Positions 26,933 through 63,311 of a stretch of 64,000 nt of DNA are shown piece after piece. The translations under genes were made by a program, and so were the position numbers. The stretch spans positions 25,431-89,430 of the forward strand of contig JBGPQP010000001.1 of the NCBI GenBank assembly GCA_041489155.1, in the 5' to 3' direction. The notes beneath the pieces are model-generated. The model did no database searches and was not told the origin of the DNA. It saw only the letters and a program-made list of their open reading frames with translations. This DNA comes from Candidatus Aenigmatarchaeota archaeon. Its GTDB lineage: Archaea > Aenigmatarchaeota > Aenigmatarchaeia > QMZP01 > QMZT01. The stretch's first letter is position 1. Each line of letters starts with the position of its first letter.

Positions 26933-27025
26933 GTTTATAGATTTATCTTCGAAAAGTTATAAATCCATATTGTTTCGATTATGCGGCGGCCTGAATTGCA
27001 AATTCAAGTCGTGATAAATTAATTA

Positions 27026-27139
27026 CGGACCTGGGGGGATTCGAACCCCCGACCTTTAGCTTAGGAGGCTACCGCTCTATTGTCGACCGAAGCAGACTAT
27101 GTCTGCTTACTACGAAGTTTCCAACTGAGCTACAGGTCC
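27026..27139 (-). tRNA. tRNA-Arg (anticodon CCU) with a ~41 nt intron in the D-loop
   Basis: The reverse complement reads GGACCTG-TA-GCTC-AGTTGG-[AAACTTCGTAGTAAGCAGACATAGTCTGCTTCGGTCGACAA]-TAGAGC-G-GTAGC-CTCCTAA-GCTAA-AGGTC-GGGGG-TTCGAAT-CCCCC-CAGGTCC-G. The acceptor (GGACCTG/CAGGTCC), D stem (GCTC/GAGC), T arm (GGGGG-TTCGAAT-CCCCC) and a 7 nt anticodon loop CUCCUAA are all canonical. The insertion sits between G19 and U20 of an otherwise standard AGUUGG-UA D-loop. Confidence 0.75.
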
Positions 27140-27161
27140 ATGGCTGCCATGATGCTTTATT

Positions 27162-39810: not shown

Positions 39811-40074
39811 TTACATTATGTCCTTTTCGGATACTATGACGAAGTCCCCCACGGATTTGACCGCAGAGAATGGTACCAGCGTGCGTCCTTTGTCATCTTC
39901 CTGCAGGTTGAGTTCACCAGCATGCTTCGTTGGTTGAACTAGGACCAGATTGATGAGTTCTCCAGATTCAACAATGTAATCAAGATCGCCTACCACTCCG
40001 AATTTCTTTCCGCTTTCCTCCGAAATGAGTATCTTACCTATAAGGTCCCTGCTTCTTACTCTTTCTTCTGACAT
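39811..40074 (-). CDS. PRC-barrel domain protein
   Basis: 87 aa with the characteristic …LIGKILISEESGKKFGVVGDLDYIVESGELINLVLV… beta-barrel pattern. Confidence 0.65.
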   Translation of the reverse strand: MSEERVRSRDLIGKILISEESGKKFGVVGDLDYIVESGELINLVLVQPTKHAGELNLQEDDKGRTLVPFSAVKSVGDFVIVSEKDIM

Positions 40075-40123
40075 AAAAACCCTCCCTCGATAATGATATT
40101 ATTAAAGTGTGATATTTAAAAAT

Positions 40124-41215
40124 TTATGCATGAACCATAAGGGTTCTTATCTTTTCAGATAATACATACTGGTAGCTTTTGCCTCTTTTCTTTCTTATGA
40201 TAGTTGCGTCTTTCACAAGCCTTTTAAGAATGTTGTTTATGGACCGTATCGCATTATCCTTGCTCTTGTAGTCGCCCATGTCCATTTTCTCAACGATTTC
40301 CGTCGGTGTCAGCTCTCCGTATTTCCATAATATTTCGATTATATTCCTTTGTTTTGACGGCAGAGATTTCAGGGAACCGAATGAGGTTCTTCGAGAATGG
40401 CTAATGTGTGTTTCGAATTCTGCATCTCTCATGAAGTTCATGTCAACAGTAGAGATGTTGTCCACAAGTGCCTTGTTCACCAAATCGTTGCACATCCTTA
40501 TAACTTCACGCGGGAAGCCTCCTGTTTTTTCGTATATCATTTCTACTGTTTCCGAAGTGAACGGCTTTATGTCTTCGCCACCAACGTGTTCTATCCTTCT
40601 TTTTATAAGCTCCCTGATTTCTGATTTTGTAAGATTTATGAGTTCAACCTTTGTGTTGGCCCTTCTCATGAATGTTTCAAGTCTGTCTCTCAGAATAGGT
40701 TCTAGTGTAGGCAGACCTGCAATTACAACAGATAGATTGTCTATCTGGTCGGTAAGAGTTCTAAGCCACTCTAGCGTTTCCGTGCTTGCCTCATGGCCTT
40801 CATCCACGAGAAGAACGGCTTTTTTATTCTTCATTTTTTCGTTCACCCATTCACTGAGATTGTAAATGTTTATGTTTTTGCTGCGTGAAAATAATCTTTC
40901 GAGTGTTCCTACGTGTATGAAGTTGGTGAAAATCTTCACCCAGTCGTCTGGATTGCTCGGTGGTTTCGAAAGGTAAAATATTTTTCTGTGTTTTTCGAAC
41001 CTATTCGTCAAAAACTTCAAGAGCGTTGTTTTTCCTGATCCCGTTGGGCCTATTAATATTGACAATTTGTCATTGTTTTGTATACTGGTTGACAATTTTT
41101 CTGTCTCTCTGCTATATCCTACGATTAAATCCGGAAGTATCTTGAAACTGAAGGGGTTTTCTCTCCAGCTAAATACCTTCATATATTTTTCATCTAACTT
41201 CATTTCCAAATTCAT
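40124..41215 (-). CDS. Orc1/Cdc6-like AAA+ ATPase with C-terminal winged helix
   Basis: The N-terminus …ENPFSFKILPDLIVGYSRETEKLSTSIQ…LSILIGPTGSGKTTLLKFL follows the Orc1/Cdc6 pattern (Lxxd-Y-P..L..RExE…GxxGTGKT). Walker B LLVDEGHE; sensor regions; a C-terminal wH (…KQRNIIEILWKYGELTPTEIVEKMD…). It is shorter (363 aa) than canonical Orc1. Confidence 0.5.
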   Translation of the reverse strand: MNLEMKLDEKYMKVFSWRENPFSFKILPDLIVGYSRETEKLSTSIQNNDKLSILIGPTGSGKTTLLKFLTNRFEKHRKIFYLSKPPSNPDDWVKIFTNFIHVGTLERLFSRSKNINIYNLSEWVNEKMKNKKAVLLVDEGHEASTETLEWLRTLTDQIDNLSVVIAGLPTLEPILRDRLETFMRRANTKVELINLTKSEIRELIKRRIEHVGGEDIKPFTSETVEMIYEKTGGFPREVIRMCNDLVNKALVDNISTVDMNFMRDAEFETHISHSRRTSFGSLKSLPSKQRNIIEILWKYGELTPTEIVEKMDMGDYKSKDNAIRSINNILKRLVKDATIIRKKRGKSYQYVLSEKIRTLMVHA

Positions 41216-41337
41216 AATTTCATATAATTAGGAAAGCTATTTAAATGCTTTTCGTGAAGTTGTGTGAACTTTGACTGAAAAAGGTCTATGTTTATACGTG
41301 ATGAAAACAATTTATATAAGTTCTCCAAATTCATTTC

Positions 41338-41892
41338 ATGAGGTGCTTCATAGCTATAGACGTCGATGAAAAACTTTTTGATAAGATTACAGAACTGCAG
41401 AAAGGAATTAATAAACTGAATGTTGACGTGAAGCTTGTTGAACCTGAAAATCTTCATTTCACGGTTAAATTTCTGGGGGACATGAATGAAGATGAAGTGA
41501 ATGAAATTAAGAATTCGCTTGGCGAATGTCTTAAAAATGAACATGAATTTAAAATCAACATTACAGGCTTTAATTATTTTGGAAACCCGAGCTACATTAG
41601 AACTCTGTGGTTGGATGTGAAAGAAGGCCAAAATGAGCTTAAAAAACTGGTTCAAATGGTTAACGATTGTGTTAAAATAGGCAAACTTGAAGTTTTGCCT
41701 CATCTGACACTTGGAAGAGTGAAAAGTCCCATAAATAAAGATTATTTGATCAAGTTCATAAACGAGAATAAAAACGTGAAGATTGGTGAAATGAACGTGA
41801 ACTACGTGAAATTAAAAGCGAGTACGCTTACGAAAAACGGTCCAGTATACAATAATTTGGCTGTTTTCAACTTGGTGCCTTGTTATGAATGA
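41338..41892 (+). CDS. thpR: RNA 2',3'-cyclic phosphodiesterase / 2'-5' RNA ligase (ThpR/LigT, 2H family)
   Basis: Two H-x-T/S-x motifs of the 2H phosphoesterase fold: LHFTVKFLG and PHLTLGRV. 184 aa. Confidence 0.8.
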   Translation: MRCFIAIDVDEKLFDKITELQKGINKLNVDVKLVEPENLHFTVKFLGDMNEDEVNEIKNSLGECLKNEHEFKINITGFNYFGNPSYIRTLWLDVKEGQNELKKLVQMVNDCVKIGKLEVLPHLTLGRVKSPINKDYLIKFINENKNVKIGEMNVNYVKLKASTLTKNGPVYNNLAVFNLVPCYE

Positions 41893-42268
41893 GAAAAAAC
41901 TAACGAAGATAAGTGCTGTTGGTGTGTGCATAAGCATAATAGCTCTGTATATTGTAACAAATCAAATCTTTTCAGTAAATGTGAATATTGGTGAAATTGA
42001 CAAGTCATTCATCGGAAAGAGCGTTAATATAACAGGTACGGTGGTTGGCATAACAAAAAACAAGGGTAATTTTTTCGTGGACCTTGAAGATGACACGGGC
42101 AAAATAAAATTGATATTGTGGGAGGATACTGCTGAATTGTTGCAATCAAACGGCATTGAAATCAACGAACTGAACAAAGGTAACATTATTAACGTTGTGG
42201 GTGAGGTTCAGGTATACAGGGGCGAATTAGAAATTATACCTATAAGAGGAAATTTGAATTTTTTGTGA
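41885..42268 (+). CDS. membrane-anchored OB-fold nucleic-acid-binding domain protein
   Basis: N-terminal TM helix (ISAVGVCISIIALYIVT), then an OB-fold-like block (KSVNITGTVVGITKNKGNFFVDLEDDTGKIKLILWED…INVVGEVQVYRGELEI), similar to the tRNA_anti/RPA-type OB folds. Translationally coupled to thpR. Confidence 0.5.
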   Translation: MNEKKLTKISAVGVCISIIALYIVTNQIFSVNVNIGEIDKSFIGKSVNITGTVVGITKNKGNFFVDLEDDTGKIKLILWEDTAELLQSNGIEINELNKGNIINVVGEVQVYRGELEIIPIRGNLNFL

Positions 42269-42269
42269 A

Positions 42270-43307
42270 CTAGAAACGTTCATGCGCAGTTTTGATAAGT
42301 TCTGTCACGAGTTTAATTATATCCTTCACATCATTCATATCCGAAACTTCTGTTGGTGTGTGAAGATAACGTGAAGGTGCCAATATCGCTAGTGAGGGTA
42401 TACCTTCTCTTATCATCGGTGTCATTGAAGCGTCAGTTGCACCTCCTGAAACAATGTCGAATTGTATCTTCATGTTGTTCTTTTTTGCAGTATCAACTAC
42501 CCATTGTTTAACCTCATTTTGTATAATACTTATTGCATCTTTTATCATAAGAACCGGTCCTTCTCCAAGTTTTGCAGTGGCCTCATATGGTTTGATTTCA
42601 GGTGTATCGCCGGCTGTTGTTACATCAAGGGATATCACTATGTCAGGGTTTGTTGCAAATACAGAGCCCCTTATGCCTATAAGCCCTATTTCTTCTTTCA
42701 CTGTTCCAACTGCATAAACTGTCCCTTTGAATTTAGTTTTCTTTAAATTTTTCATGACTTCTATTAATTCCAAGCATCCTATGCGATCATCGAATCCATA
42801 TCCCGTTATTCTAGAACCACAAAGTTTGTCGAACTCGCCATAATTTGTTATGAAATCTCCTGTCCTGATACCCATTTTTTCAACTTCTTTTTTGTTCTTT
42901 GCCCCCACATCTATGAACATTTCTGCTAACTTCACGGGCTTGTTCACGTCTTCTTTGTCTTGGAGGTGAATTGGTTTTGAACCAATAACTCCTATGACGG
43001 GTCCCTTGGAGCTATGTATCTTGAATTTTTGCGAAAGAAGGATTTTGGGATCCCATCCTCCTATGGTTTCAAATCTTATGAAACCCTCATCGTCTATATA
43101 TTTCACCATTAAACCTACTTCATCCATGTGGGCACTGAGCATTATTTTAGGAGAACCAGATCCTTTTCTGCATATCAAGTTACCTATTTTGTCAACTTTA
43201 AGTTCTTCAACATATGGTTTCAGTTCTTTAATCAGCACATCTCTTACGTTTTTTTCATCGCCGGAAATTGAAGGAGAATCTACAAGTTTTTTCAATGTTT
43301 CTTCCAT
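42270..43307 (-). CDS. M42-family metallo-aminopeptidase (FrvX/TET-like)
   Basis: Metal-binding blocks SAHMDEVGLMV, GFDDRIGC and later E/D/H ligands; 345 aa typical of M42 peptidases. Confidence 0.85.
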   Translation of the reverse strand: MEETLKKLVDSPSISGDEKNVRDVLIKELKPYVEELKVDKIGNLICRKGSGSPKIMLSAHMDEVGLMVKYIDDEGFIRFETIGGWDPKILLSQKFKIHSSKGPVIGVIGSKPIHLQDKEDVNKPVKLAEMFIDVGAKNKKEVEKMGIRTGDFITNYGEFDKLCGSRITGYGFDDRIGCLELIEVMKNLKKTKFKGTVYAVGTVKEEIGLIGIRGSVFATNPDIVISLDVTTAGDTPEIKPYEATAKLGEGPVLMIKDAISIIQNEVKQWVVDTAKKNNMKIQFDIVSGGATDASMTPMIREGIPSLAILAPSRYLHTPTEVSDMNDVKDIIKLVTELIKTAHERF

Positions 43308-43367
43308 ACGGACACCACCTACCTACTATCGACTAGATATAAAATATTGGTTTTCCGGTCTATAAAT

Positions 43368-44660
43368 TCATTCTATATCTTCTTTTGACAGGATGTTAAC
43401 TGGAGATTTTAAGTTTTCCTTTTCCATTCCAACCAAGAACTTCACGGATTTCCTTCTGGCTATCATGTCAAGTTTGTAGTCAACCCTGCCGTCGAATATG
43501 ACTGCGTACGGGTTGTCAAGCGTTTTCAGCGTATTCTGTAATTCTTTGGTTGGAACCTTACCCAGAATGTTGAAAAAAGAATCGAAAATGCATGCGGCTC
43601 TGGTTCCTATAAGTTCGTCAAGTGTTTTCTTGAATATCTTTTTCTGTTCATCGGTTATCGTTGTTCTCTTGGGAAGAGGTTGCTGCTGTTTAAAATCCTT
43701 ATCTCTCTGGACGAATTCGTTCATTGGTCTTTCTGTCGATGGCGGCCTCTCAAAGGGTTTCTCAATTGGTCTTTCAATGGGCCTTTCTATGGGTCTTTCT
43801 CTTCTTTCATTGTTGTTCTGCCTATCGATCTTGCCTTCGAGTTTAAATTGTGATGCCGATATCTTGTCCCTCAATGCCTTGAAAACCTCTTTTTTGGTGA
43901 GCTCTTCTACCTCTTTGCCTTCTGGAGCAATGGCAACAAAATCAAGGTCTGTCGTTTCCATCAGGCTTTTCAAGTTCAAAAAGCCGCCCCTGTCACCATC
44001 AAAAAATGCAGTGGTTGTTTTTTGTTTTGAAAGGTTGATTATTGTTTGTGGTATCGAGCTGCCTTCTATGGCTATTACGTTCTTGATTCCGTATCTAATC
44101 ATATTTATTACGTCTGCCCTTCCTTCAACTATTATTATTTCTTCCGACTCTAGAACACCTGGGCCGCAAGGCAAACCCTGATAGCTGGTTATTTCATAGG
44201 TCTTTATCTCCTGTCTTATCTCTTCCGCTATCTTGGTTGTGTCCGGTATGCCTTTCTCAAGAAGTTCTCTCAATATCGATTTTGCCTTTTCTATGACGAA
44301 TTTTCTCTTTAATTCCCTAGTGTCCTCGACTGATTTCAGTATTATCTTTGCGATGCAGGGTCCGACCCTCTCTATAGTTTCCAAAGTAGCGGCTATTAGA
44401 GCAGTTTCTGCTGAGTCGAGAGAAGACGGAATTATGACCTCTCCGTGAGATTTACCTCTTTCGGAATTTATGTTAACCTCGATTCTTCCAATTCTTCCAG
44501 TTCTTTGCAGTTCCCTGAGATCGAGATCAGAACCAAGCAGCCCTTCTGTTTGTCCGAATATTGCTCCTATAACATCAGGTTTTTCTATTACTCCCTGAGC
44601 GTCTATTTCTGCCCTTACAACGTATTTTATCGACGTTGGCGCGAGTTTTGACATGAACAT
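43368..44660 (-). CDS. dnaG: archaeal DnaG-type primase (Toprim)
   Basis: Archaeal DnaG N-terminal signature VIGAIFGQTEGLLGSDLDLRELQRTGRIGRIEV. Toprim core IIIVEGRADVINMIRYGIKNVIAIEGS with DxD (FDGDRGG). An internal tandem peptide repeat ERPIERPIERPIEKPFERPP is present. Confidence 0.85.
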   Translation of the reverse strand: MFMSKLAPTSIKYVVRAEIDAQGVIEKPDVIGAIFGQTEGLLGSDLDLRELQRTGRIGRIEVNINSERGKSHGEVIIPSSLDSAETALIAATLETIERVGPCIAKIILKSVEDTRELKRKFVIEKAKSILRELLEKGIPDTTKIAEEIRQEIKTYEITSYQGLPCGPGVLESEEIIIVEGRADVINMIRYGIKNVIAIEGSSIPQTIINLSKQKTTTAFFDGDRGGFLNLKSLMETTDLDFVAIAPEGKEVEELTKKEVFKALRDKISASQFKLEGKIDRQNNNERRERPIERPIERPIEKPFERPPSTERPMNEFVQRDKDFKQQQPLPKRTTITDEQKKIFKKTLDELIGTRAACIFDSFFNILGKVPTKELQNTLKTLDNPYAVIFDGRVDYKLDMIARRKSVKFLVGMEKENLKSPVNILSKEDIE

Positions 44661-45033
44661 CCTCCTCCAATGAAAGAGAATCCGGGCTATTCAGAGCTCC
44701 GAAATCCTCAATTTTATTTTTTCCCAAAGTCATTACCTTCCACCTTAATTCCGAATTTGGACTTTTTCCTTGCCTTTGAAGCAGGTATTTCAATTTTTTT
44801 GCAATCTCCCTGCCTTTTGTGTCGAAATCGGTCAGTATGACTACCTGTTTTTTCGCACTTAATGCGACCTCGGCCACCTCATAAAGCGGCCTGCCGTTGA
44901 TCGCAATAATATCTTTCAGGCCGAGGGTTTTTAAAGCTTTTTTGTCCATTTTCCCCTCGACTATGATCAGTTTGTCCTCCAAGCCCCTTATAACCTCATC
45001 GAGTTGCTCTTCATCGATTTGTTTGTTTTTCAT
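44575..45033 (-). CDS. small Toprim-domain protein
   Basis: LIIVEGKMDKKALKTLGL…VVILTDFDTKGREIAKKL is a Toprim (E…DxD) core. The 3' ~85 nt overlap the dnaG start; the Arg/Ser-rich tail may be out-of-frame read-on. Confidence 0.5.
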   Translation of the reverse strand: MKNKQIDEEQLDEVIRGLEDKLIIVEGKMDKKALKTLGLKDIIAINGRPLYEVAEVALSAKKQVVILTDFDTKGREIAKKLKYLLQRQGKSPNSELRWKVMTLGKNKIEDFGALNSPDSLSLEEDVHVKTRANVDKIRCKGRNRRSGSNRKT

Positions 45034-45860
45034 ATCAATGCGTCCACTATGTCTCTTTTAGTTACAATGCCAATAAGCTCTTCTTCATCAGTGACTGGCA
45101 AGCCACCTATATGCATGCTTTTCATGAGGTTTATTACTGAAAACAAGTCAGCATTGAACTGGATTGTGACCAGATCCTTGTTCATAATTTTTTCTATCTT
45201 CGTCTTATCCGTGACTAGAGTATTCAAACTCTTGTTTTTATATAAATGCTTCAGTATATCGATCGGTGTCACAACACCAAGCAGTATGTTGTCTTCCACG
45301 ACTGGCAGCCTCCTAAAACCACCCCTGCACATCATTTTTGCGACATCGTGTATATTGTTGTCTTTCCGTATGAATATTGGCCTTTCCACCATTATTTCGC
45401 TTACCTCTATGCCCACTGGTCTGTTTATTAGTTTGACTAAATCCAATTCGGAGACCACCGATATTATCTTTTTGGAATCAACTATTGGATAAAGACCACT
45501 TCTTTCCATCTTGAAAATTTCAAGCGCTCTGCCTATACTGGTCATGTAATGTATGGTTCTAACGTGTGTTGTCATGAATTTTTCGACTTTAAGTTCTATG
45601 TTTTCCCTGTTTCTCTTGAAAATCTCGTGTTTTTCGCCGCCACCGAGCAATTCCAACAGATCAATTGTTGTAACCATGCCCTTCAGAGATTCCGAATGAT
45701 CGACTACTGGTATTTTTCTTACCCCTTCCGAGAACATGAGCCTCAAAACATCCAAAAGTTTTGTTTTTTCATCAGAAAACACCAATCTTCTTGATGATAT
45801 CTCTGTTACTGTCTTTTTTGTGTCCACAAAGGCTCCGAGAACAACTTTTCTGTTAAGCAT
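45030..45860 (-). CDS. four-CBS-domain protein
   Basis: Four CBS repeats (…VRKIPVVDHSE…, …GLYPIVDSKKIISVVSELDL…, …FRRLPVVEDNILLGVVTPIDIL…, …IGGLPVTDEEELIGIVTKRDIV…). The track ORF extends to 46055, but the upstream part is hydrophobic junk overlapping the opposite-strand gene. The start was chosen at the MLNRKVV Met. Confidence 0.65.
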   Translation of the reverse strand: MLNRKVVLGAFVDTKKTVTEISSRRLVFSDEKTKLLDVLRLMFSEGVRKIPVVDHSESLKGMVTTIDLLELLGGGEKHEIFKRNRENIELKVEKFMTTHVRTIHYMTSIGRALEIFKMERSGLYPIVDSKKIISVVSELDLVKLINRPVGIEVSEIMVERPIFIRKDNNIHDVAKMMCRGGFRRLPVVEDNILLGVVTPIDILKHLYKNKSLNTLVTDKTKIEKIMNKDLVTIQFNADLFSVINLMKSMHIGGLPVTDEEELIGIVTKRDIVDALI

Positions 45861-45909
45861 AACAATCCATGAACATTTTATTTTAATTGGAATGAAATAA
45901 AAAATTATC

Positions 45910-47010
45910 ATGCCGAATTTTAAAGGAGCGCTGAAAACAAAGCTACCAAAAAAATTAGAGGACAGGGTATCTCTGCTGTTTATAATCATTACGCTGCTTT
46001 TGGCTTTTTTTCTTACGTTTTCCATTTCATTTATAGTAGGTAAACCGATTGGCACAGATTTCTGGTTTCACCTTAAAATAGCAGAATCTTACGCGAGAGG
46101 CGAGAACGCGCTCTTCAATGAAGAATTCATGGCCCCCAACAGAGGTCCATATCCACCGCTTTTTCACCTGATGCTGGCATTGTTTGTTACTTCGGGTTTT
46201 ATTTTGCAGATAGCAACTTTTCTGCAGGTAATGTTTTATCCTTTGGCTTTGTTCACATCTGTTTTTCTGGTTTGGAAAAGGATTAATGCGTCTTCAGCGT
46301 CTTTTGTTTCTATTGCCCTCTTTTCATCGGTCGCCTTCTTTGACAGATCTATGCAAGTAATTCCTCAGGCCTTCGACATGATACTCTTTCCGCTTGCAAT
46401 TTATTTTTTTCTCACAAAGAGACGGATATTCTTCCTGATTTCTATGTCGATAATGATATATTCACACGGTGCGTTTGGTTTTCTCCTATTTAGTTCTCTC
46501 GTCTTATACAATTTAAAATACAAAGTTTCAAAGAAAATGATAATAGATGTTCTTGTTGCAACTATTCCAATACTGGTATTAATACTTGTTTTTCTTCCAT
46601 CACAAATCGGTTTGATCAATGACATAAAAAATCCGCAGGAAAAACTTATCAAGGAAAATCCAATATCTTTATTTGTTTATATGGGTATTTTTCCCACATC
46701 AACATTCATAGTTTCATTGATGCATTTTTTTCATAAAAAGAGGAAATTAAGTAAAACGGAAATAATGTCACTTTTGTGGTTAATAGTATTACTGCCGGTG
46801 ATAGTTTTTTACCCAGACAGATTTTGTACCTATGCAGTCGTTCCCGTGTCAATCTTGGCTTCAAAATTTTTGTCAGATATTTCTTTTGCTCATGGTAGAT
46901 GGTTGGGTCTCTTATTACTCGTATTTTCATTTGCAATATCATTGATTACATATTTGAACTGGTGGCAGGTTTTATATGAAACTTCTTCTGTGAGTTTTGA
47001 TATTCATTAA
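45910..47010 (+). CDS. polytopic membrane protein, possibly GT-C-type glycosyltransferase-like
   Basis: About 10 predicted TM helices with a conserved-looking first periplasmic loop (KPIGTDFWFHLKIAESYARGEN). This resembles PMT/ArnT/AglB-like GT-C N-terminal loops only loosely. Confidence 0.4.
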   Translation: MPNFKGALKTKLPKKLEDRVSLLFIIITLLLAFFLTFSISFIVGKPIGTDFWFHLKIAESYARGENALFNEEFMAPNRGPYPPLFHLMLALFVTSGFILQIATFLQVMFYPLALFTSVFLVWKRINASSASFVSIALFSSVAFFDRSMQVIPQAFDMILFPLAIYFFLTKRRIFFLISMSIMIYSHGAFGFLLFSSLVLYNLKYKVSKKMIIDVLVATIPILVLILVFLPSQIGLINDIKNPQEKLIKENPISLFVYMGIFPTSTFIVSLMHFFHKKRKLSKTEIMSLLWLIVLLPVIVFYPDRFCTYAVVPVSILASKFLSDISFAHGRWLGLLLLVFSFAISLITYLNWWQVLYETSSVSFDIH

Positions 47011-47032
47011 TAAGAATGGATAAATTATAACT

Positions 47033-48412
47033 ATGAAAAATGTACTTGAAAAGGTTCTTAAAAAAATAGTGCCAAGCAAGAATGAGATAGAAGAATTTTC
47101 TAGAATACTGAAAGACGTTCTGCATGCCGCCGACATGGTTTTGAAGCCTCTGAAGCTTGAAAAAACAATCGCCGGTTCATTCATACGTGATACGTGGCTT
47201 GCTGACAAGCGTGAGCTGGATCTTTTCATAATGTTTCCTGTTTCATATTCGCGCGAAAGACTTGAGAAGGTTGGCATAAAGATTGGCAAAAAAATCATGA
47301 AAAAACTAAATGGCAGATACGAGATAGCCTATGCTGAACATCCGTATGTTAAGGGGTGGTTCAGAGGCTTCATGTTAGATATAGTTCCATGTTATAAAGT
47401 CGAATCAGCTTCAAAAATAAAATCTGCTGTCGATAGAACGCCTTTCCATAACAAATACATTATTGAAAATCTGAAACCGAAAATGGCAAACGAGGTCCGT
47501 CTTCTTAAACAATTCTGCAAGGCGATGGGGGTTTATGGCTCTGACGTAAGAACCCAGGGATTTTCGGGTTACCTATGCGAACTGCTGATAATAAAATACA
47601 AAACTTTCAAAAATTTGTTGATTGAAGCTAAAAAATGGGAATTCGGCATTTTTATAGATTTGGAGAACCACTGCAAATTCGACTATCCTACCGAACAATT
47701 TAAAGGCCAGCCATTGATTGTTATAGACCCAACAGACCCAAAAAGAAATGTTGCTGCTGCCCTCTCAGACGATAATTTCATGAAATTCATTGAAACCTCT
47801 GGGGAGTTTATTAAAAACCCATCTACAAAGTTTTTCGAAATAGACAAGACTGCACTTAAAGGAATTCTGTTAAAAAAATATTTGAAAAAAAGAGGTACGG
47901 AGTTTTTTGTGATAGAGTTCAAAAGACCGGAAATTGTTGATGATATATTATGGTCCCAGATGAGGAAAACTTCAGTTAGAATGGCCAATCTTTTGGGAGA
48001 AAACGAATTCGAAATTTTCAAAAAAGAGGTATGGAGTGATGAAAAACGTTCTTATCTATTATTCGAGATGAAGGTGTGGAAACTGCCAGAAATAAGAAAG
48101 GTTATGGGGCCACCCGTCGGTTCGCAGAAACACGCAGATGAATTTAAAAAGAAATATGCAAGTAGTGCTTACATAGAAGGAGATAGATGGGCAGCCGAAG
48201 TTAAGAGAAAAAACAGGGACTGCGCTTTACTTTTTAAAAAATTCCTAAAAAAACCTAGTAAAAAATTGCAGAACGAAGGGGTAAGATCTTATATTGCAAA
48301 GAGCATTTCTAACGGTTTTAAAATTCTTGGAAGCAAAAAAATTGAAGAGTTGATTGCAAAAAATAAAGATTTTGCTGTTTTTCTCAAAAAATATTTTGAG
48401 AGGAAATTATGA
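47033..48412 (+). CDS. cca: CCA-adding enzyme (archaeal class I tRNA nucleotidyltransferase)
   Basis: N-terminal nucleotidyltransferase signature AGSFIRDTWLADKRELDLFIMF (GS…R.T.L…D.D); ~459 aa, typical for archaeal CCA enzymes. Confidence 0.8.
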   Translation: MKNVLEKVLKKIVPSKNEIEEFSRILKDVLHAADMVLKPLKLEKTIAGSFIRDTWLADKRELDLFIMFPVSYSRERLEKVGIKIGKKIMKKLNGRYEIAYAEHPYVKGWFRGFMLDIVPCYKVESASKIKSAVDRTPFHNKYIIENLKPKMANEVRLLKQFCKAMGVYGSDVRTQGFSGYLCELLIIKYKTFKNLLIEAKKWEFGIFIDLENHCKFDYPTEQFKGQPLIVIDPTDPKRNVAAALSDDNFMKFIETSGEFIKNPSTKFFEIDKTALKGILLKKYLKKRGTEFFVIEFKRPEIVDDILWSQMRKTSVRMANLLGENEFEIFKKEVWSDEKRSYLLFEMKVWKLPEIRKVMGPPVGSQKHADEFKKKYASSAYIEGDRWAAEVKRKNRDCALLFKKFLKKPSKKLQNEGVRSYIAKSISNGFKILGSKKIEELIAKNKDFAVFLKKYFERKL

Positions 48413-57015: not shown

Positions 57016-57169
57016 GAAACCACATCTCCTTTGCCTCTATTTATCGATTTATAACTATCTAATGGATATACAGATTATGAATGGGTTATTTATAAGCTTT
57101 TCTCCAATTTTTCTAAGCACCGTCATTAACCAATTAATTTAAGCCTTGACCAATATAGATTATCAAAAC

Positions 57170-57299
57170 GGGCTCGTAGCTCAGCTGGTTAGAGCGCCGG
57201 TCTTATAAGACCGTCAGGCGTCATGCCTGATAGCTTTGAACCGACAATCATCGGTTATAGGAAAGCCGGAGGCCAGGGGTTCGAATCCCCTCGAGCCCA
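57170..57299 (+). tRNA. intron-containing tRNA with anticodon loop CUUAUAA (UAU, Ile/AUA-decoding)
   Basis: GGGCTCG-TA-GCTC-AGCTGGTTA-GAGC-G-CCGGT-CTTATA[AGACCGTCAGGCGTCATGCCTGATAGCTTTGAACCGACAATCATCGGTTATAGGAA]A-GCCGG-AGGCC-AGGGG-TTCGAAT-CCCCT-CGAGCCC-A. Acceptor, D and T arms are canonical. The ~56 nt insert sits at or near the canonical 37/38 site. The anticodon TATA can pair with TATA at the intron 3' end, and ACCG/CGGT can form the outer helix, as a bulge-helix-bulge motif would require. Confidence 0.7.
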
Positions 57300-57301
57300 T
57301 G

Positions 57302-57897
57302 CTACTTTTTGATTTTTAAAAGGCTGAAAAACCACGATAACTTTTCATACAAATTTTCATACAAATAGACTGTTATACTAATGCAGAAACCCTCTGCCAA
57401 CGTCATTGTTACAGGCACGCCATTGAAAAATAGTTTCATGTAAGCTTGTTCCGTGTAGCTATAATATCCCATATTTACCTGAATTATGTCGAAAAGGAAA
57501 CCCGTCAACGCGCCAAAAATGAAGTAAAGAATGAATCTGTAGTCTCTTTCGCGCACCAAAATGTAGGCAAATGATAAGAAAAATACAATGAAACTGGAGG
57601 CCCAGAATAACGGAGCGTCAATCATTTTTAAACCTCCTGAAAACAACATCGGCCAGAAAATATGAAATGCAAATGAACTGAAAATATGCAAAAAGCGTGA
57701 TGATGGAAACCCCCAAAAACTGCGGATATGCATGATATTCCCACAGGCCGAAATAAACACCAATCGGCTCCCACACAGAAGCCAGTAACACGGTAAACAA
57801 CCCCAGAGTTATGTATTTTCCAAGTTTTTTTCTTTCGGCAAACAGTATGAGAATAAGAGGCAGGGACATTATCAGGAAAAAGACAAGTTGCTCCATA
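57302..57897 (-). pseudogene. polytopic membrane protein encoded in two overlapping frames (possible frameshift)
   Basis: ORF 57618..57897 (MEQLVFFLIMSLPLILILF…YHAYPQFLGVSIITLFAYFQF…) and ORF 57302..57763 (…ILYFIFGALTGFLFDIIQVNMGYYSYTEQAYMKLFFNG…) are both hydrophobic membrane-protein-like. They overlap by ~146 nt in different frames, consistent with a single ~240 aa gene interrupted by a frameshift or a sequencing error. Confidence 0.35.
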
Positions 57898-57932: not shown

Positions 57933-59192
57933 ATGAAAATCATATCGGATCTGCACATCCATTCCCGTTTTTCCAGGGCGACAAGCAGCGACCTCAGCAT
58001 AGCCAATCTCGTGAAATACGCCAAGATGAAAGGCCTTCATCTTCTCGGTACTGGCGACTTCACCCATCCCGCCTGGCTCCAGGAGCTGAAAAACGAGCTG
58101 AAGGAAGACGGGACGGGAATACTAAAAACAGATGACGGGTTTCCTTTCATCCTTTCGGGCGAGATAGCGAGCATTTACAACCAGAATAATGCTCTGAGGA
58201 GAATACATAACATCCTGCTTTGTCCGGATTTTGCAACAGCCGAGCAGGTACATGAAACTCTGAAAGGGAAGCACGTCAAAATAGACGCTGACGGCAGGCC
58301 GATATGCGGCATCCGCTGCCCTGAATTGGTTGAAACCCTGAAAGGCATAAATCCAAGAATCGAAATTATTCCTGCCCACATATGGACGCCGTGGTTCTCG
58401 CTTTTCGGGTCGAAATCTGGTTTCGACCGTATAGGGGATTGTTTTCAGGATCAGACAAAAAACATACATGCGCTGGAGACAGGCTTGTCTTCGGATCCAG
58501 CCATGAACTGGCGGCTGTCACAGCTTGACGGGTTTTCTCTCGTTTCGTTTTCAGATTCCCATTCATTCTGGCCATGGAGGATCGGGAGAGAGGCGACGGT
58601 ATTTGATCTGAAACATGTCAACTATGACAATCTGATAAAGGCCTTGAGAACCGGGGATGGTTTAGTGGAGACGATAGAAGTCGACCCTTCTTATGGCAAA
58701 TATCATTATGATGGCCACAGGGACTGTAATGTTTCGCTCAGTCCGGAGGAATCGAAAAAATTGCGGAACATCTGCCCGGTGTGCGGGAGGCCGCTGACAA
58801 TAGGTGTTTTGCACCGTGTGGAAGAACTTGCAGACAGGCCGGAAGGCTTCACGCCCAAAGATTCAAGACCCTTTCGTTCCGTTGTCCCGTTATCGGAAAT
58901 AATATCTTTTGCTCTGGGGGCGAGCATGAGTTCTTCGAAGGTCTGGGGGGAATACAGCAGGCTCGTGGGCGCCTTCGGGTCCGAACTTGGAGTGTTGTTT
59001 GACGCAGATGAAGAGAAATTAAGAACTACAACAGAAAGTAAAATTGCAGAACTGATAAACAAGATGGGAAGCAGCAGGATAAAAATAAAGCCCGGATATG
59101 ATGGCGTGTACGGGGAAATCGAAACCGAAAGCGTGAGAAGATCTCAGAAAAAAAGTATAACAAAACCTCAAAAGAGGCTGGTTGATTTCTAA
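57933..59192 (+). CDS. PHP-domain protein (TIGR00375-like archaeal phosphoesterase family) with Cys-rich insert
   Basis: MKIISDLHIHSRFSRATS start (PHP motif I), …LLGTGDFTHP…, further His/Asp ligands (PAHIWTP, SFSDSHSF), and an internal CPVCGRP Zn-binding-like element; 419 aa. Confidence 0.65.
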   Translation: MKIISDLHIHSRFSRATSSDLSIANLVKYAKMKGLHLLGTGDFTHPAWLQELKNELKEDGTGILKTDDGFPFILSGEIASIYNQNNALRRIHNILLCPDFATAEQVHETLKGKHVKIDADGRPICGIRCPELVETLKGINPRIEIIPAHIWTPWFSLFGSKSGFDRIGDCFQDQTKNIHALETGLSSDPAMNWRLSQLDGFSLVSFSDSHSFWPWRIGREATVFDLKHVNYDNLIKALRTGDGLVETIEVDPSYGKYHYDGHRDCNVSLSPEESKKLRNICPVCGRPLTIGVLHRVEELADRPEGFTPKDSRPFRSVVPLSEIISFALGASMSSSKVWGEYSRLVGAFGSELGVLFDADEEKLRTTTESKIAELINKMGSSRIKIKPGYDGVYGEIETESVRRSQKKSITKPQKRLVDF

Positions 59193-60151
59193 ATATATGG
59201 TTTCCTTCCGATTACATTTACTGATGTGGATGCGTCCACGAAATAATCATATTCCAGTTTAAATATTAGGTTTTTCTGTATGTATTTGGCCGTGCTGCCA
59301 GGGGGTACCGGCATCTCAATTTCGCATGTCAGGGTCGCTGCTTGGCTCTTCCATAAATCAACAAGCATGCTTCTCTCGGGAATGCCTGAATTGCATATAA
59401 GATTGACCGAAACGTCACTTTCAAAAAAGAGTTTTGCCTTGTTCCAGTTGTCTGTTTTTTGACAGCCTTGTTGCTCGGGGTTGCAGACAACGCCGCCGCC
59501 TATGTTCTGTATTTTTATATTTATAGGGAAGTTGATCTTCCCCTCACCGCTCCAGTATCTTATGGGGCCGTTGACAACGATCTCCATGCTCACCGGACCG
59601 CTGGTCGTGCTGACATCCTCAAGGGGGAGTGATTCACCGCGTGTTTCAAGTGATATAAGTTCTTCCTGTGAGGCTATATTGACCGCTTTTATCGTGCTGG
59701 TCTTGTACATATAATAAGTTCTCATGCTCGGGTTGAAGGTTACAGAAATGCCTTCTGGTATGTTGGGTGGTGCTATGCAGTCCCATGTGCATGTTTTTGT
59801 TTCCCCCACTGTGCCACTCTCCTGATCAGGGGCCAGCAAAACCTCTTCAGAAGCGCATAAGTCAAAACGTTCTATGCATGAAATTTCTATTTTGTTGCCG
59901 CCAAATACGCTTTCTACATTGTAAAGCTTCATAAAAACATTTTCCGCGTCGGAAGCGCCGATATTTCTTATTTTCGCTCTTAATTCGAATGCTTCGCTGG
60001 CATAGATATCTTTCAGTGGGCTGACCTCAAAATTTTCTATAACAACGCCGCTGCCTGCGGCTATGTTGCCTCCGAAAAAGGTGCAACCTGAAATTAAAAC
60101 TGCTGCTAAAATTACAAGCAATGCCGCAGTAGCTGCCTGTAGCTTGGTCAT
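59189..60151 (-). CDS. secreted lipobox protein, paralog 4 of a tandem family (CARDB/Ig-like N-terminal domain)
   Basis: Signal peptide with the lipobox …VLISGC|T. CARDB-like block GSGVVIENFEVSPLKDIYASEAFELRAKIRNIGASDAENV. Family motifs TCTWDCIAPPN…RTYYMYKTSTIKAV, GESLPLED, IQNIGGGVV, YDYFVDASTSVNV. Confidence 0.6.
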   Translation of the reverse strand: MTKLQAATAALLVILAAVLISGCTFFGGNIAAGSGVVIENFEVSPLKDIYASEAFELRAKIRNIGASDAENVFMKLYNVESVFGGNKIEISCIERFDLCASEEVLLAPDQESGTVGETKTCTWDCIAPPNIPEGISVTFNPSMRTYYMYKTSTIKAVNIASQEELISLETRGESLPLEDVSTTSGPVSMEIVVNGPIRYWSGEGKINFPINIKIQNIGGGVVCNPEQQGCQKTDNWNKAKLFFESDVSVNLICNSGIPERSMLVDLWKSQAATLTCEIEMPVPPGSTAKYIQKNLIFKLEYDYFVDASTSVNVIGRKPYI

Positions 60152-60187
60152 ATTTATAAAATGAGATTCAGCCTTTTATCCTTTCGG

Positions 60188-61201
60188 TCAGCCTGGCATT
60201 GTAGACGGTTTCACGTAAACTTCTGATGCTTTGTCTATGAAATAACCGTATTTTGCATTCAGTTCTATGTTCTTTTGAACAAGGCCTACGTATTGGCTGG
60301 TATCAGCGATTATTTTGCAAGAAATAGTCTGCGGATCTCCGCCGACAAGGAGTATATCTTCTGTGGTACCGCAAGAGCCTTGGGCCGGTTGAAACCCAAT
60401 CGGTAATACTATGTTCAGCTTAAGTTTATAAAGGTCGGGGTTTGTCATCAGGCCGCCTTCTTTTTTGCAGTTGGTGCTTTCTTCTAGGCAGACTGTTCCG
60501 CCGCCCACATTCTTTACCGTAATGACAATCGGAAATTCGACGCTGCTGCTGTACGTTCTTATCGGTGTTGTTGCCTCCATCTCTATGGATATGGGTGAAT
60601 TGGTCTTGCTGTACGCTTCCGTTGGCAGACTCTTGCCCTGATCCTGCAGTGTCTTGAGCTCGTCTTTTGAAACCAGAGTTACTGTTTTTATGGTAGTTGA
60701 CTTGTATGTGTAATAAAATCTTACCCTCGGATTCGCAGTTATGCTTAAACCCGGCAGAACTTCAGGGGCGATGTATCTCCAACTACATGTCGTTTCTCCG
60801 CCAGTTATGCCTGCATTCGTATCTTCTGGCAGAAGTCTTATTTGACGAGTGGTATATCTGCAATAATTTTCGTCCGGGAAGTTCTCGCCTGTGGGGTTTG
60901 AGGTGGTGCCAGCTGCTCTTCTCCATACCTGGTCCAAGCCAAGCAATTCAGCGAAGCCGTTTTCTGCTGTGACCGAGCCGGTGTTTTTCACCTTTAGCTT
61001 GAACGCGACAGTCTCACCTGAATTGACATTCTGGAAATCTGGGCCGAATTCCTCTACTATAACGCCCGTGCCTGGCGGTGTATCGGAATTGAAAGGTGTT
61101 ATCGACGGCAGAGTGCAGCCAGATGCCAGAATAATCGAGAAAATAGACAAAAACAAAATGGGATATTTATTGCTCATGCTATATAATTTGGAAAAAAACA
61201 A
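60188..61201 (-). CDS. secreted lipobox protein, paralog 3 of the tandem family
   Basis: Lipobox ILASGC|T; GTGVIVEEFGPDFQNVNSGETVAFKLKVKNTGSVTAENG; TCSWRYIAPEV…RFYYTYKSTTIKTV; GKSLPTEA; VKNVGGGTV; YGYFIDKASEVYV. Confidence 0.6.
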   Translation of the reverse strand: MFFSKLYSMSNKYPILFLSIFSIILASGCTLPSITPFNSDTPPGTGVIVEEFGPDFQNVNSGETVAFKLKVKNTGSVTAENGFAELLGLDQVWRRAAGTTSNPTGENFPDENYCRYTTRQIRLLPEDTNAGITGGETTCSWRYIAPEVLPGLSITANPRVRFYYTYKSTTIKTVTLVSKDELKTLQDQGKSLPTEAYSKTNSPISIEMEATTPIRTYSSSVEFPIVITVKNVGGGTVCLEESTNCKKEGGLMTNPDLYKLKLNIVLPIGFQPAQGSCGTTEDILLVGGDPQTISCKIIADTSQYVGLVQKNIELNAKYGYFIDKASEVYVKPSTMPG

Positions 61202-61210
61202 ATAAAAGGT

Positions 61211-62191
61211 TTAGAATTCTTCCATGCCTTTGACTGTTATCTGTGTTGAAGCGTCCACTGAGTAGAGGTAGTTGAGATTCACCTTGAAGTTGCCCTGTGT
61301 TCTGCTAGACGGCGGCTGCATTATCTGGAATTCGCATGTGACGTCTGTTGTTCTTCCGTCCCATATGTATACGAAAGTCCCTGTAGGCTGCGGCAGAAGC
61401 GTTGGCACATCAGTGTACAACGGCGTTCCCCATTGCGTCTGTGTCGGGCAATAGCCACCGACTGGCGAAACCCATGTCGGCCATTCGACCGATATCGCGA
61501 CCGGGTAGTTTCTGCCCCTTATCTGCCCTCCGCCTGTGTTATCAATTCTTATTTGCAACTGGAATCTGGCATCTGTGAGTTCTCTTGCCTTAACGAATGG
61601 ACCTGCGTTAACCGTGACCGTCAAAGGACCTGCCGTCTGTGACACGACTTCGCTGGTCAGTGATTCACCGGACTGGACGAGTCTCCTAAGCTCCTCGCTA
61701 GTCACAAACCATACAGGTTTTATTGCCTTGGTTTCATACAGGTAGTAAACTCTCGCCCTCACTGGATAGAGTTTCCTCTCACCCCTCTGAAGGGTCGGAG
61801 CGGTTAGTTCCCATGTTACCTTTCCCAGACCGCCTTCCGTCTGTGACTCTACGTCTGGTGCAAGAAGTGAACCAAGGTCCACGACTGTTGATGGTGTTAC
61901 GATCCATTCTGTGGGATCTATAGCCATTATCTCCGCGACTGCGGGTGCTCCTGATCCCATAAGGCCGTTGTAGTCTCCTCTGTTCCTCACTTCAAGCTGT
62001 AGTCCTACTGGTTCCCCTGATTCTATGGCAGTGTCTAGTGTTGGCAGGAATTTTTCTATCACGAGGCCCTGTCCTATTGCTGTCTGGTTGCCTCCTCCTA
62101 TGCAACCTGAAACTGGCAGTATAGCTAGCACGAATAACAGCGAAAGTAAATTCGTTTTTTTGAATGCGTCGGCCATATTTATTTTATACAC
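61211..62191 (-). CDS. secreted lipobox protein, paralog 2 of the tandem family
   Basis: Lipobox LPVSGC|I; GQGLVIEKFLPTLDTAIESGEPVGLQLEVRNRGD; VTWELTAP…RVYYLYETKAIKPV; GESLTSEV; IDNTGGGQI; YLYSVDASTQITV. Confidence 0.6.
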   Translation of the reverse strand: MYKINMADAFKKTNLLSLLFVLAILPVSGCIGGGNQTAIGQGLVIEKFLPTLDTAIESGEPVGLQLEVRNRGDYNGLMGSGAPAVAEIMAIDPTEWIVTPSTVVDLGSLLAPDVESQTEGGLGKVTWELTAPTLQRGERKLYPVRARVYYLYETKAIKPVWFVTSEELRRLVQSGESLTSEVVSQTAGPLTVTVNAGPFVKARELTDARFQLQIRIDNTGGGQIRGRNYPVAISVEWPTWVSPVGGYCPTQTQWGTPLYTDVPTLLPQPTGTFVYIWDGRTTDVTCEFQIMQPPSSRTQGNFKVNLNYLYSVDASTQITVKGMEEF

Positions 62192-62210
62192 AAATAAGCT
62201 TTTATATCTT

Positions 62211-63311
62211 TCACAGCTTTATTTTAGGCTCGACCGTTATCGACAACTCTTTTGTGAACTTATACCAGTAGCCGATTTCCGCGGTTATCTGGGAGGTGAG
62301 CTCCTGCTTTATTCTTGTTCTGTCTGCGGCTGTTATGGCACAGGAATATTTGGGCGTGGCTTTGCCTATGAAATTTATACTGATGATATCATTCCCGTTC
62401 GCCTTGCTTTTCAGGTGCGTTTCAATGCATCTGATTATTGCATTCTGGTTGCCGTTGGTGTCAATCGCGGTCACGAATTCACTGCTTATCTTAAGGCACA
62501 GCTTCTTCTGGCTTTGGTCCATGTTCTTGCAATCCGTTGTTGATATATCAACATTAGGTGTGGATGAGTCGGAAAGTTCTAATATGCCGCCGCCCTTGTT
62601 CTCTATCCAGAAGCTCATTATGCCTCCGCCCTGGTTTTTGACATCGCCTTCTGCATCAATTACCAGCGGCTGATTAAGCACTTCTATATATGGTTTGACC
62701 GGGCCTTCACCTATTGAAAGGATGCCTGTTTCTGAGAAGCTCTTGCCTTCGGAAATTATCCTTTCAAGCTCTGCCTTATTTACAAAGGTGACTGACGCGG
62801 TCGAAAATGTCCTGTATTTGTATTTGGCCATCACGCCCATTTTGCACGGGGTCTCTACGTTCAGGTTTTCCCTTGCTGTAAGTTTCCATTCGACAAGCGC
62901 CGTCGACTGCGGATGCATTTCTATTGTGCACTCTGACATGCCAGTTGCCGGGTTGTATCTTGGAGCGGTTGTGCCTGAGCAAAACTCACCGCTTACGCCT
63001 TCATTTTTTTCGTCCAAGCCAAAGAGGCCGCAATCGTTGTAAAGACCTATTGTGACTGTTGTTTTGTCGTATTCTGGGCTTTGCAGGTTCTTTACTACCG
63101 CCCTCAGGCGCATTGTCTGGCCTGCCCGGACGGTTGATGAAGGTATCGCCTGCAGGCTTTCTATCGAGATTACGTCATGTCGTTGTTCCTGTACACTAAC
63201 GCCGCCAAAAATGTCCGGCAAAAACGGAATTTCTATGTCAAGCAAAGGAACCGTGCAGCCAGAGCTTAACAACACCAGAAACAGCGCTGATAGGACTAGA
63301 ATCCTTTTCAT
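62211..63311 (-). CDS. secreted lipobox protein, paralog 1 (most divergent) of the tandem family
   Basis: Lipobox LLSSGC|T; the Ig-like block …VRAGQTMRLRAVVKNLQSPEYDKTTVTIGL…; LVEWKLTAREN…AKYKYRTFSTASVTFV; GKSFSETG; VKNQGGGIM. Shares spacing of motifs with the other three but low identity. Confidence 0.55.
   Translation of the reverse strand: MKRILVLSALFLVLLSSGCTVPLLDIEIPFLPDIFGGVSVQEQRHDVISIESLQAIPSSTVRAGQTMRLRAVVKNLQSPEYDKTTVTIGLYNDCGLFGLDEKNEGVSGEFCSGTTAPRYNPATGMSECTIEMHPQSTALVEWKLTARENLNVETPCKMGVMAKYKYRTFSTASVTFVNKAELERIISEGKSFSETGILSIGEGPVKPYIEVLNQPLVIDAEGDVKNQGGGIMSFWIENKGGGILELSDSSTPNVDISTTDCKNMDQSQKKLCLKISSEFVTAIDTNGNQNAIIRCIETHLKSKANGNDIISINFIGKATPKYSCAITAADRTRIKQELTSQITAEIGYWYKFTKELSITVEPKIKL

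Follow-up and report, generated by a model that had tools for sequence, protein, structure and literature searches.

Archaea canonically decode AUA with tRNA-Ile2(CAU), whose anticodon is modified to agmatidine by TiaS. A tRNA gene in a 64-kb stretch of DNA from an Aenigmatarchaeota archaeon (the whole stretch that was analysed, referred to here as the window) appears instead to carry the anticodon UAU in the DNA itself, directly followed by an intron, and raises the question of how this organism reads AUA and whether the anticodon has been correctly identified. The evidence presented below favours a functional AUA-decoding tRNA-Ile(UAU) of a DPANN archaeon, a reading to which a probability of roughly 0.9 is assigned.

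A complete intron-containing tRNA gene

The gene lies at positions 57170-57299 of the window on the forward strand (130 nt) and encodes a mature tRNA of 74 nt before CCA addition. It matches the Rfam tRNA family RF00005 at 62.2 bits (gathering cut-off 29; E = 4.5e-11 for a search of the whole 64-kb window), with an alignment that spans the full model (1-71) and contains a 57-nt insertion directly 3' of CUUAUA, and it is the sole above-threshold Rfam match in the window. The 5' exon (57170-57207; tRNA positions 1-37) is followed by a 56-nt intron at the canonical 37/38 position (57208-57263) and by the 3' exon (57264-57299; positions 38-73), which ends in the discriminator base A73 and does not encode CCA. 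The full-length match, the 37/38 intron and the exact coordinates confirm the preliminary description of this locus as a tRNA with anticodon UAU and an intron of about 56 nt.

As read from the sequence, the acceptor stem (GGGCUCG/CGAGCCC) carries A73 as discriminator, the D arm (GCUC-AGCUGGUUA-GAGC) includes G18G19, and the anticodon stem (CCGGU/GCCGG) contains a U31-G39 pair. A variable loop of 5 nt (AGGCC) precedes a canonical T arm (AGGGG-UUCGAAU-CCCCU), and the bases conserved for tertiary interactions (U8, A14, G18G19, A21, U33 and GUUCGAAUC) are all present. The precursor folds at -56.8 kcal/mol (z = -4.1), a value equalled by none of 200 shuffled sequences.

Candidate expression signals flank the gene on the same strand. 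A TATA-like box, TTAATTTAAG, is located at 57134-57143, approximately 27-36 nt 5' of the tRNA start, where it could serve as the promoter, and the upstream ATTAATTTAAGC box is common to the window gene and three orthologue lineages (four lineages in all). Just 3' of the gene, two T5 runs (57306-57317) likely act as an archaeal transcription stop. Judged from their sequence and placement, the ATTAATTTAAGC box and the T runs are plausible archaeal promoter and stop signals.

Host and conservation of the locus

The window encodes a thermosome, archaeal ribosomal proteins, an archaeal CCA-adding enzyme, RtcB, GlyRS, PheRS and AlaRS, and the best named relatives of its AlaRS are from Aenigmatarchaeota (66-72% identity). 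For two of the window's proteins, a search for identical recorded proteins gave no match. The order AlaRS, two small ORFs, thermosome, tRNA, MJ0043_C protein and four paralogous ORFs is kept in relatives whose AlaRS is 67-75% identical to that of the window. In these syntenic orthologues the tRNA occupies the same gap, and all have CTTATA followed by an intron; the 5' exon of the window gene is identical to that of three syntenic sequences and shares 95% identity with four more, while the 37/38 introns differ in sequence and in length (38-79 nt). Many orthologues carry a second intron in the T loop, which can reach roughly 180-190 nt, and in two orthologues a third intron interrupts the variable region, so that the clade shows one to three introns per gene, with the window gene representing the single-intron form. 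In the complete Aenigmatarchaeota genome CP070809.1, where the gene order differs, no UAU tRNA was found within 10 kb of the AlaRS gene.

Use and meaning of AUA

Across the 14,824 codons of 33 window ORFs, AUA accounted for 714 of the 1199 isoleucine codons (59.5%), making it the majority isoleucine codon, and at 48 per 1000 codons it was more frequent than AUG. Its meaning was assessed from the AlaRS encoded in the window. At its 35 AUA positions, 118 homologues carry predominantly isoleucine (62.5%), with leucine (12%) and valine (10%) next, a profile that is the same as for AUU/AUC positions, whereas the AUG positions align to methionine in 51% of cases; the homologous proteins are themselves conceptual translations under the standard code, which introduces some circularity from very close relatives. 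Because the AUA positions align with isoleucine in the homologues, AUA can be taken to mean isoleucine, as the preliminary description had proposed; they resemble AUU/AUC and do not align to methionine. On the evidence of these comparisons, AUA is the main isoleucine codon of the organism and is read as isoleucine.

Splice motif

An archaeal intron at position 37/38 is typically presented by the anticodon stem, a 3-nt bulge (the last two intron bases and base 38), a 4-bp helix between bases 32-35 and intron bases n-2 to n-5, a second 3-nt bulge on the 5' side (bases 36 and 37 and the first intron base, i1) and an intron-side helix. In the window gene, C32 U33 U34 A35 (57202-57205) pairs with the intron bases U-A-G-G, n-5 to n-2 (57258-57261), through C-G, U-G, U-A and A-U pairs, and the C32-G(n-2) pair is present in 21/21 clade sequences. 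The 3' bulge, A A | A38 (57262-57264, with the 3' splice site between 57263 and 57264), is clean; this bulge reads AAA in 13/26 and AGA in 7/26 archaeal UAU pre-tRNAs. On the other side, the bulge U36 A37 | A(i1) (57206-57208, with the 5' splice site between 57207 and 57208) faces a single unpaired A (57257), which produces a 3x1 loop and not a clean bulge. Beyond it, the outer strand GACCG (57209-57213) pairs with CGGUU (57252-57256) after a 1-nt slip, and the latter strand has an alternative partner at 57240-57244 in an intron-internal hairpin. The slip is needed at the first intron-side pair, which is G.A in the window gene and in only one other of 26 archaeal pre-tRNAs; within this set, 24/26 sequences form the i2:n-6 pair and 22/26 the i3:n-7 pair.

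The arrangement required for splicing is not the most stable one predicted. The splice-competent fold (-47.2 kcal/mol) lies 4.8 kcal/mol above the best fold constrained to the cloverleaf (-52.0 kcal/mol), in which U36 and A37 are paired. Full pairing of UAUA gives the lowest energy and would leave no 5' bulge, so U36 and A37 must bulge out for splicing to occur. The preliminary description had suggested a bulge-helix-bulge-like structure built on the self-complementary UAUA of the anticodon region; such a motif with a 4-bp central helix can indeed be formed, but it does not use the whole of UAUA, as C32-A35 pair while U36 and A37 bulge. Compared with the strict hBHBh' form, the central helix is complete (4/4) and the 3' bulge clean, while an unpaired A lies opposite the 5' bulge and there is a 1-nt slip in the outer helix; the modelled motif appears best described as a slightly relaxed bulge-helix-bulge.

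The register of this helix was compared with alternatives across related genes. In 26 archaeal UAU pre-tRNAs, the canonical register gave 92/104 paired cells in the central helix, against 17-61 when the 3' partner was moved by -2 to +3 positions, and for 21 distinct sequences of the window's clade the corresponding values were 69/84 and at most 48.

Anticodon and splice register

The anticodon bases T34 A35 T36 (UAU) occupy 57204-57206 within the loop segment C32 U33 U34 A35 U36 A37 (57202-57207), and A38 follows only at 57264, across the intron. The loop CUUAUAA had been called unambiguous in the DNA, and to that extent the earlier claim needs correction: the genomic CTTATAA consists of five to six exon bases plus the first intron base or bases, several registers are possible, and the UAU reading stands on structure and comparison. 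Enumeration of registers showed that the 56-nt intron can slide to leave UAU, UAA, UGA or GGA as the anticodon. UAU results only from a 5' exon that extends to loop base 5, 6 or 7, while an exon ending after base 4 gives UAA (Leu), after base 3 gives UGA (Ser) and earlier gives GGA (Ser). As the intron can be slid in this way, calling the anticodon requires a structural and comparative argument, and that argument holds. CTTATA is invariant in 46 related pre-tRNAs while the bases 3' of it vary; the comparison drew on four syntenic lineages, 22 further archaeal genes and 25 metagenome contigs, with CTTATA kept in 26/26 archaeal and 25/25 clade metagenome sequences. Together, the class I body with A73, the 46 pre-tRNAs that keep CTTATA and a splice-site helix that fits only the canonical register establish the 37/38 register and the anticodon UAU, with a predicted spliced junction of ...GGUCUUAUA|AGCCGGAGG... 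(57207/57264; loop ...CUUAUA-AGCCGG...). Judged from sequence, assignment of this tRNA to isoleucine is supported by its UAU anticodon, its class I shape with A73 and the comparison of codons with aligned residues.

Software calls for this gene depend on how the intron is treated. A default ARAGORN run missed it. In intron mode the program placed a 56-nt intron and called tRNA-Ser(tga), for the window gene as well as for two orthologue sequences. Once the introns had been removed, ARAGORN identified both the window gene and the genes of three orthologue lineages as tRNA-Ile(tat).

Distribution of archaeal UAU-encoding tRNA genes

GTDB species genomes were scanned with the pattern GTAGCTCAG..AGAGCG.....CTTATA, which is broad and gave at least 120 matches, many of them to bacterial tRNA-Ile2(UAU) genes. 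At least 30 archaeal UAU loci were recovered, from Woesearchaeota, Micrarchaeota, Iainarchaeota, Aenigmatarchaeota and Nanoarchaeota as well as from MAGs labelled Methanosarcinales and one Promethearchaeota. Among the matches listed, an intron directly follows CTTATA in 23/30 archaeal loci and is missing from 7/30, mostly from Micrarchaeota. An encoded UAU had been described as rare and confined to a few lineages, which is accurate for cultured archaea, where Korarchaeum cryptofilum and Nanoarchaeum equitans were the only 2/167 complete genomes with tRNA-Ile(UAU) in one survey (PMC6000648), but not for DPANN, given its presence in ARMAN-2, -4 and -5 (PMC3239211) and the loci reported here. UAU tRNAs thus appear, from these sequence matches, to be common across DPANN.

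Published tRNA-Ile(UAU) genes with a 37/38 intron include those of ARMAN-2 (PMC3239211) and K. cryptofilum (PMC6000648). Among the closest parallels is ARMAN-2 (Candidatus Micrarchaeum), likewise a DPANN archaeon with an encoded UAU and a single 37/38 bulge-helix-bulge intron, in which the tRNA has been proposed as an AUA decoder replacing the TiaS system (PMC3239211). The intron of the ARMAN-2 precursor is 25 nt long, lies in a strict motif and is cleaved in vitro by an epsilon2 endonuclease (Fujishima et al. 2011, PMC3239211), whereas the predicted intron of the window gene is 56 nt long, with two internal hairpins and a 5' bulge that is slightly relaxed. The K. cryptofilum and N. equitans genes resemble the window gene in being archaeal tRNA-Ile genes with UAU, and the former is also intron-containing (PMC6000648), but they come from different phyla, whereas the window gene belongs to a DPANN-wide population. 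Outside the archaea, Mycoplasma mobile is a prokaryote that similarly uses an encoded UAU for AUA without a cytidine-modifying enzyme, although its tRNA-Ile2(UAU) is bacterial, intronless and shown to have an unmodified U34 (PMC3575796). The window gene is accordingly a new example of an arrangement already documented in related DPANN archaea, and not a new kind. The canonical tRNA-Ile2(CAU) with agmatidine likewise reads AUA as isoleucine without reading AUG, but achieves this with a modified C34 in place of the encoded U34 seen here, and with a dependence on TiaS that a UAU tRNA does not have.

Alternative interpretations

If the intron were spliced three bases further 5', the loop would become CUUGAAA and the product a tRNA-Ser(UGA), with one base less giving a tRNA-Leu(UAA). 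The intron-mode ARAGORN call corresponds to the serine register, and this register would also seem conserved, as G(n-2), A(n-1) and R(n) are kept. Conservation of G(n-2) is, however, accounted for by its pair with C32, and A35, U36 and A37 are invariant in the 46 sequences despite being intron bases in the UGA reading. Archaeal Ser and Leu tRNAs belong to class II, whose variable arm is long, and those for Ser carry G73, whereas the tRNA encoded here has a 5-nt variable loop and A73; in addition, the register comparison of the helix points to cleavage at 37|38, and ARAGORN selects a register without modelling the splice motif. The ARAGORN Ser(UGA) call was rejected on the short variable loop, the A73 discriminator and the splice-register geometry, and a serine or leucine identity is considered highly improbable. 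Equally little weight is given to the view that translation makes no use of this locus and that it is a pseudo-tRNA in decay or the remnant of a mobile element. The slight irregularity of the splice motif and the failure of the default ARAGORN run to detect the gene would fit such decay, but a match of 62 bits with all four arms intact, synteny kept across lineages whose AlaRS is only 67-75% identical, compensatory stem changes, a conserved upstream box and the heavy use of AUA all argue that the gene is maintained.

A functional tRNA-Ile(UAU) could still be a redundant or auxiliary AUA decoder, in a genome that also has TiaS and an agmatidine-modified tRNA-Ile2(CAU) and so keeps the standard system intact. 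Nothing points to this directly, although the UAU matches include the Methanosarcinales-labelled MAGs and the Promethearchaeota locus, from groups generally regarded as TiaS users. Against it, AUA is the dominant isoleucine codon, which fits a dedicated and well-expressed decoder. Neither tiaS nor a CAU tRNA was found in the 64-kb window, and no TiaS-like family was present in the Pfam and NCBIfam annotations of the window or in the annotations of relatives' flanks. All 25 clade metagenome matches to a pattern open to either C or U at position 34 have U, with no CAU form among them at this locus. These results are compatible with TiaS-less decoding. The genomes of ARMAN-2, -4 and -5, also DPANN, contain tRNA-Ile(UAU) and lack both tRNA-Ile(CAU) and TiaS, an absence shown genome-wide (PMC3239211), whereas for the window's organism 64 kb and the flanks of relatives were covered. 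An auxiliary role is therefore regarded as unlikely, and the parallel with ARMAN suggests that TiaS and tRNA-Ile2(CAU) are probably absent from the lineage. A literature search on TiaS together with DPANN yielded no relevant study.

Predicted processing and function

For the tRNA-Ile(UAU), transcription from the TATA-like box about 30 nt upstream would yield a 130-nt precursor. Within it, sequence and comparison indicate that C32-A35 would pair with the 3' end of the intron to form the 4-bp central helix of the slightly relaxed bulge-helix-bulge, and the archaeal splicing endonuclease would cut after A37 and before A38. RtcB would then join the exons and the CCA-adding enzyme would complete the 3' end, in line with the established steps of archaeal tRNA processing (summarised in PMC5829648). 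The latter enzyme is needed because the gene encodes no CCA. Candidates for both trans-acting activities are encoded in the window, the RtcB tRNA-splicing ligase at 33925-35331 on the reverse strand (Pfam PF01139, E = 2e-155, with RtcB-family NCBIfam matches) and the archaeal CCA-adding enzyme at 47033-48412 on the forward strand (NCBIfam TIGR03671, 461 bits versus a cut-off of 281, with a Pfam annotation); no splicing endonuclease gene was found in the 64-kb window. The mature 74-nt class I tRNA, with loop CUUAUAA and A73, would be charged with isoleucine by IleRS and read AUA. Misreading of AUG would most likely be guarded against by a modification of U34, possibly introduced while the anticodon is paired with the intron, as occurs in eukaryotes.

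Conserved features of the intron

The intron contains a hairpin, UCAGGC-GUCAU-GCCUGA (57214-57230), with an equivalent in 15 clade orthologues. A MAFFT/RNAalifold analysis of 15 clade sequences found compensatory changes at 5/6 pairs of this hairpin and also recovered the anticodon stem and the intron-side helix; the anticodon stem itself shows a compensatory change from C27-G43 to U27-A43, on both sides, in five sequences. Downstream of the hairpin, the motif GCUUU (57233-57237) is conserved as [GA][CT]TTT in 19/21 distinct clade introns. One clade metagenome sequence has an intron identical to that of the window gene, and the intron of another differs only by a 2-nt insertion in the loop of the hairpin.

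Complementarity between intron and D arm was clearly above expectation across 26 DPANN introns (mean 6.15 versus 5.22 +/- 0.12 in shuffles), but for the window's own intron it was not significant against shuffles (P about 0.44), and D-arm pairing is consequently not treated as a feature of the window gene. The Haloferax tRNA-Trp intron carries box C/D motifs. Inspection of the present intron by eye found CUGA but no C box, and a box C/D function was rejected.

Eukaryotic tRNA-Ile(UAU) genes, as in yeast and Cyanidioschyzon merolae, share both the UAU anticodon and a 37/38 intron that pairs with it (PMC6582322, PMC9602550), and the C. merolae gene has three introns (PMC6582322, PMC9602550), a number reached by some Aenigmatarchaeota orthologues. 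In yeast, the intron is required for the formation of pseudouridines 34 and 36 by Pus1 and blocks ncm5U34 (PMC6582322). No match to the Pus1 family was found in the window annotations, and the comparison with eukaryotes is best taken as a functional analogy and not as demonstrated intron homology. By that analogy, the intron could have been retained in nearly all tRNA-Ile(UAU) genes of DPANN as a control on anticodon modification, holding U34-A35 in a helix and presenting a conserved single-stranded motif until the modifying enzyme acts, as for pseudouridines 34 and 36 of yeast; we consider this explanation quite improbable as it stands. The single-stranded motif proposed for this role reads GCUUU in the window's clade and, in other clades, CGCUCUA/CGUUCUA; its sequence is complementary to the D-arm 3' strand.

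Implications

Genes of this type illustrate how intron-aware tRNA finders can assign the wrong anticodon, as ARAGORN did in calling serine, or miss the gene entirely, with the consequence that DPANN genomes would seem to have no AUA decoder. The frequency of introns at the archaeal loci (23/30 among the matches listed), the one to three introns per gene in the clade and the conserved intron motif provide a modest lead on why introns are retained in archaeal and eukaryotic tRNA-Ile(UAU), and, should the proposed role in anticodon modification be true, intron-dependent decoding of AUA would be a trait common to archaea and eukaryotes. The tRNA-Ile(UAU) described here adds the Aenigmatarchaeota to the archaea that would decode AUA through a UAU anticodon present in the genome, and in this organism the supposedly 'minor' decoder would serve the isoleucine codon that is used most.

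A conserved motif within tRNA-Ile(UAU) introns

The introns of the tRNA-Ile(UAU) genes evolve rapidly but have one short motif in common, found at positions 57233-57237 of the window and in the related loci L027, L044, L051, L065, L070, L077, L081, L087 and L113. Within the clade of the window gene, this motif takes the form GCUUU (pattern [GA][CT]TTT) and was present in 19 of 21 distinct introns, while introns from other DPANN lineages carried CGCUCUA, CGUUCUA or CGCUCUG, 5-8 nt inside the intron. The motif is complementary to the 3' strand of the D-arm, (U/C)AGAGCG, if G.U pairs are permitted, and there is apparent covariation between the two elements, as tRNAs bearing CAGAGCG have an intron motif ending in CUCUG or CUUUG. 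Across a set of 26 introns, complementarity to the D-arm exceeded that of shuffled sequences (6.15 versus 5.22 ± 0.12), while for the window intron by itself it was not significant (P = 0.44 against shuffles). The 3' splice junction, AAAGC, is a further stretch to which GCUUU is complementary, in this case without covariation.

Additional introns and a second disrupted tRNA

The tRNA-Ile(UAU) gene of the window contains the 37/38 intron only, while further introns were identified in several orthologues (L124, 15721-15890; L130, 15637-15808; L138, L142, L147 and L154). For example, an intron in the T-loop (position 58-60) occurs in many orthologues and ranges in size from ~12 to roughly 180-190 nt, and a third intron, in the variable region, is present in L138 and L147. 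Three introns likewise interrupt the tRNA-Ile(UAU) gene of the red alga C. merolae (PMC9602550).

The window also encodes a second disrupted tRNA on the reverse strand (27025-27140), which looks like a tRNA-Arg(CCU) with an intron of ~40 nt within the D loop, a non-canonical position. The Rfam match to this gene was partial and fell slightly below the cut-off (27.5 versus 29 bits), and ARAGORN in intron mode detected the tRNA but placed the intron wrongly; once the D-loop insert was cut out by hand, ARAGORN returned tRNA-Arg(cct). An intron at this position implies a splicing endonuclease of broad specificity in this lineage.

Genomic context

In every relative, tRNA-Ile(UAU) is directly followed by a gene for an MJ0043_C-domain protein (415-419 aa across relatives; window 57933-59192, forward strand; TIGR00375 family at 204 bits, under the cut-off), which has no evident tie to the adjoining tRNA. 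Downstream of both lies a tandem array of four similarly sized ORFs (320-366 aa; 59189-63311, reverse strand), which recur with the same sizes and positions in all syntenic relatives and are treated here, on size and position, as putative paralogues. None of the four matched Pfam, and neither of the two scanned matched NCBIfam.

Elsewhere in the window, a single 481-aa ORF (12374-13819, reverse strand) encodes a fusion of Pus10, the tRNA pseudouridine(54/55) synthase (aa 9-380, 341 bits), with ribosomal protein L21e (aa 387-478, 94 bits), and the same fusion was called in two independent metagenome contigs. G+C content falls to 0.376-0.378 across ~8 kb (40001-48000), versus 0.44-0.50 in the remainder; this stretch contains a STAND/AAA ATPase gene, together with LigT, M42 peptidase, DnaG-like Toprim and CBS genes assigned via synteny with relatives.

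UAU tRNAs on contigs assigned to other archaeal groups

DPANN-style tRNA-Ile(UAU) genes, with 37/38 and T-loop introns, were also found on three short GTDB contigs labelled Methanosarcinales (L044, L081 and L093). These genes closely resemble the Aenigmatarchaeota orthologues, and the contigs may be mis-binned DPANN sequences rather than Methanosarcinales DNA. Among the Asgard archaea, a Promethearchaeota MAG (L065) encodes a UAU-anticodon tRNA with a 41-nt intron at 37/38 on a 3.7-Mb scaffold, which may have a bearing on eukaryote-like AUA decoding.
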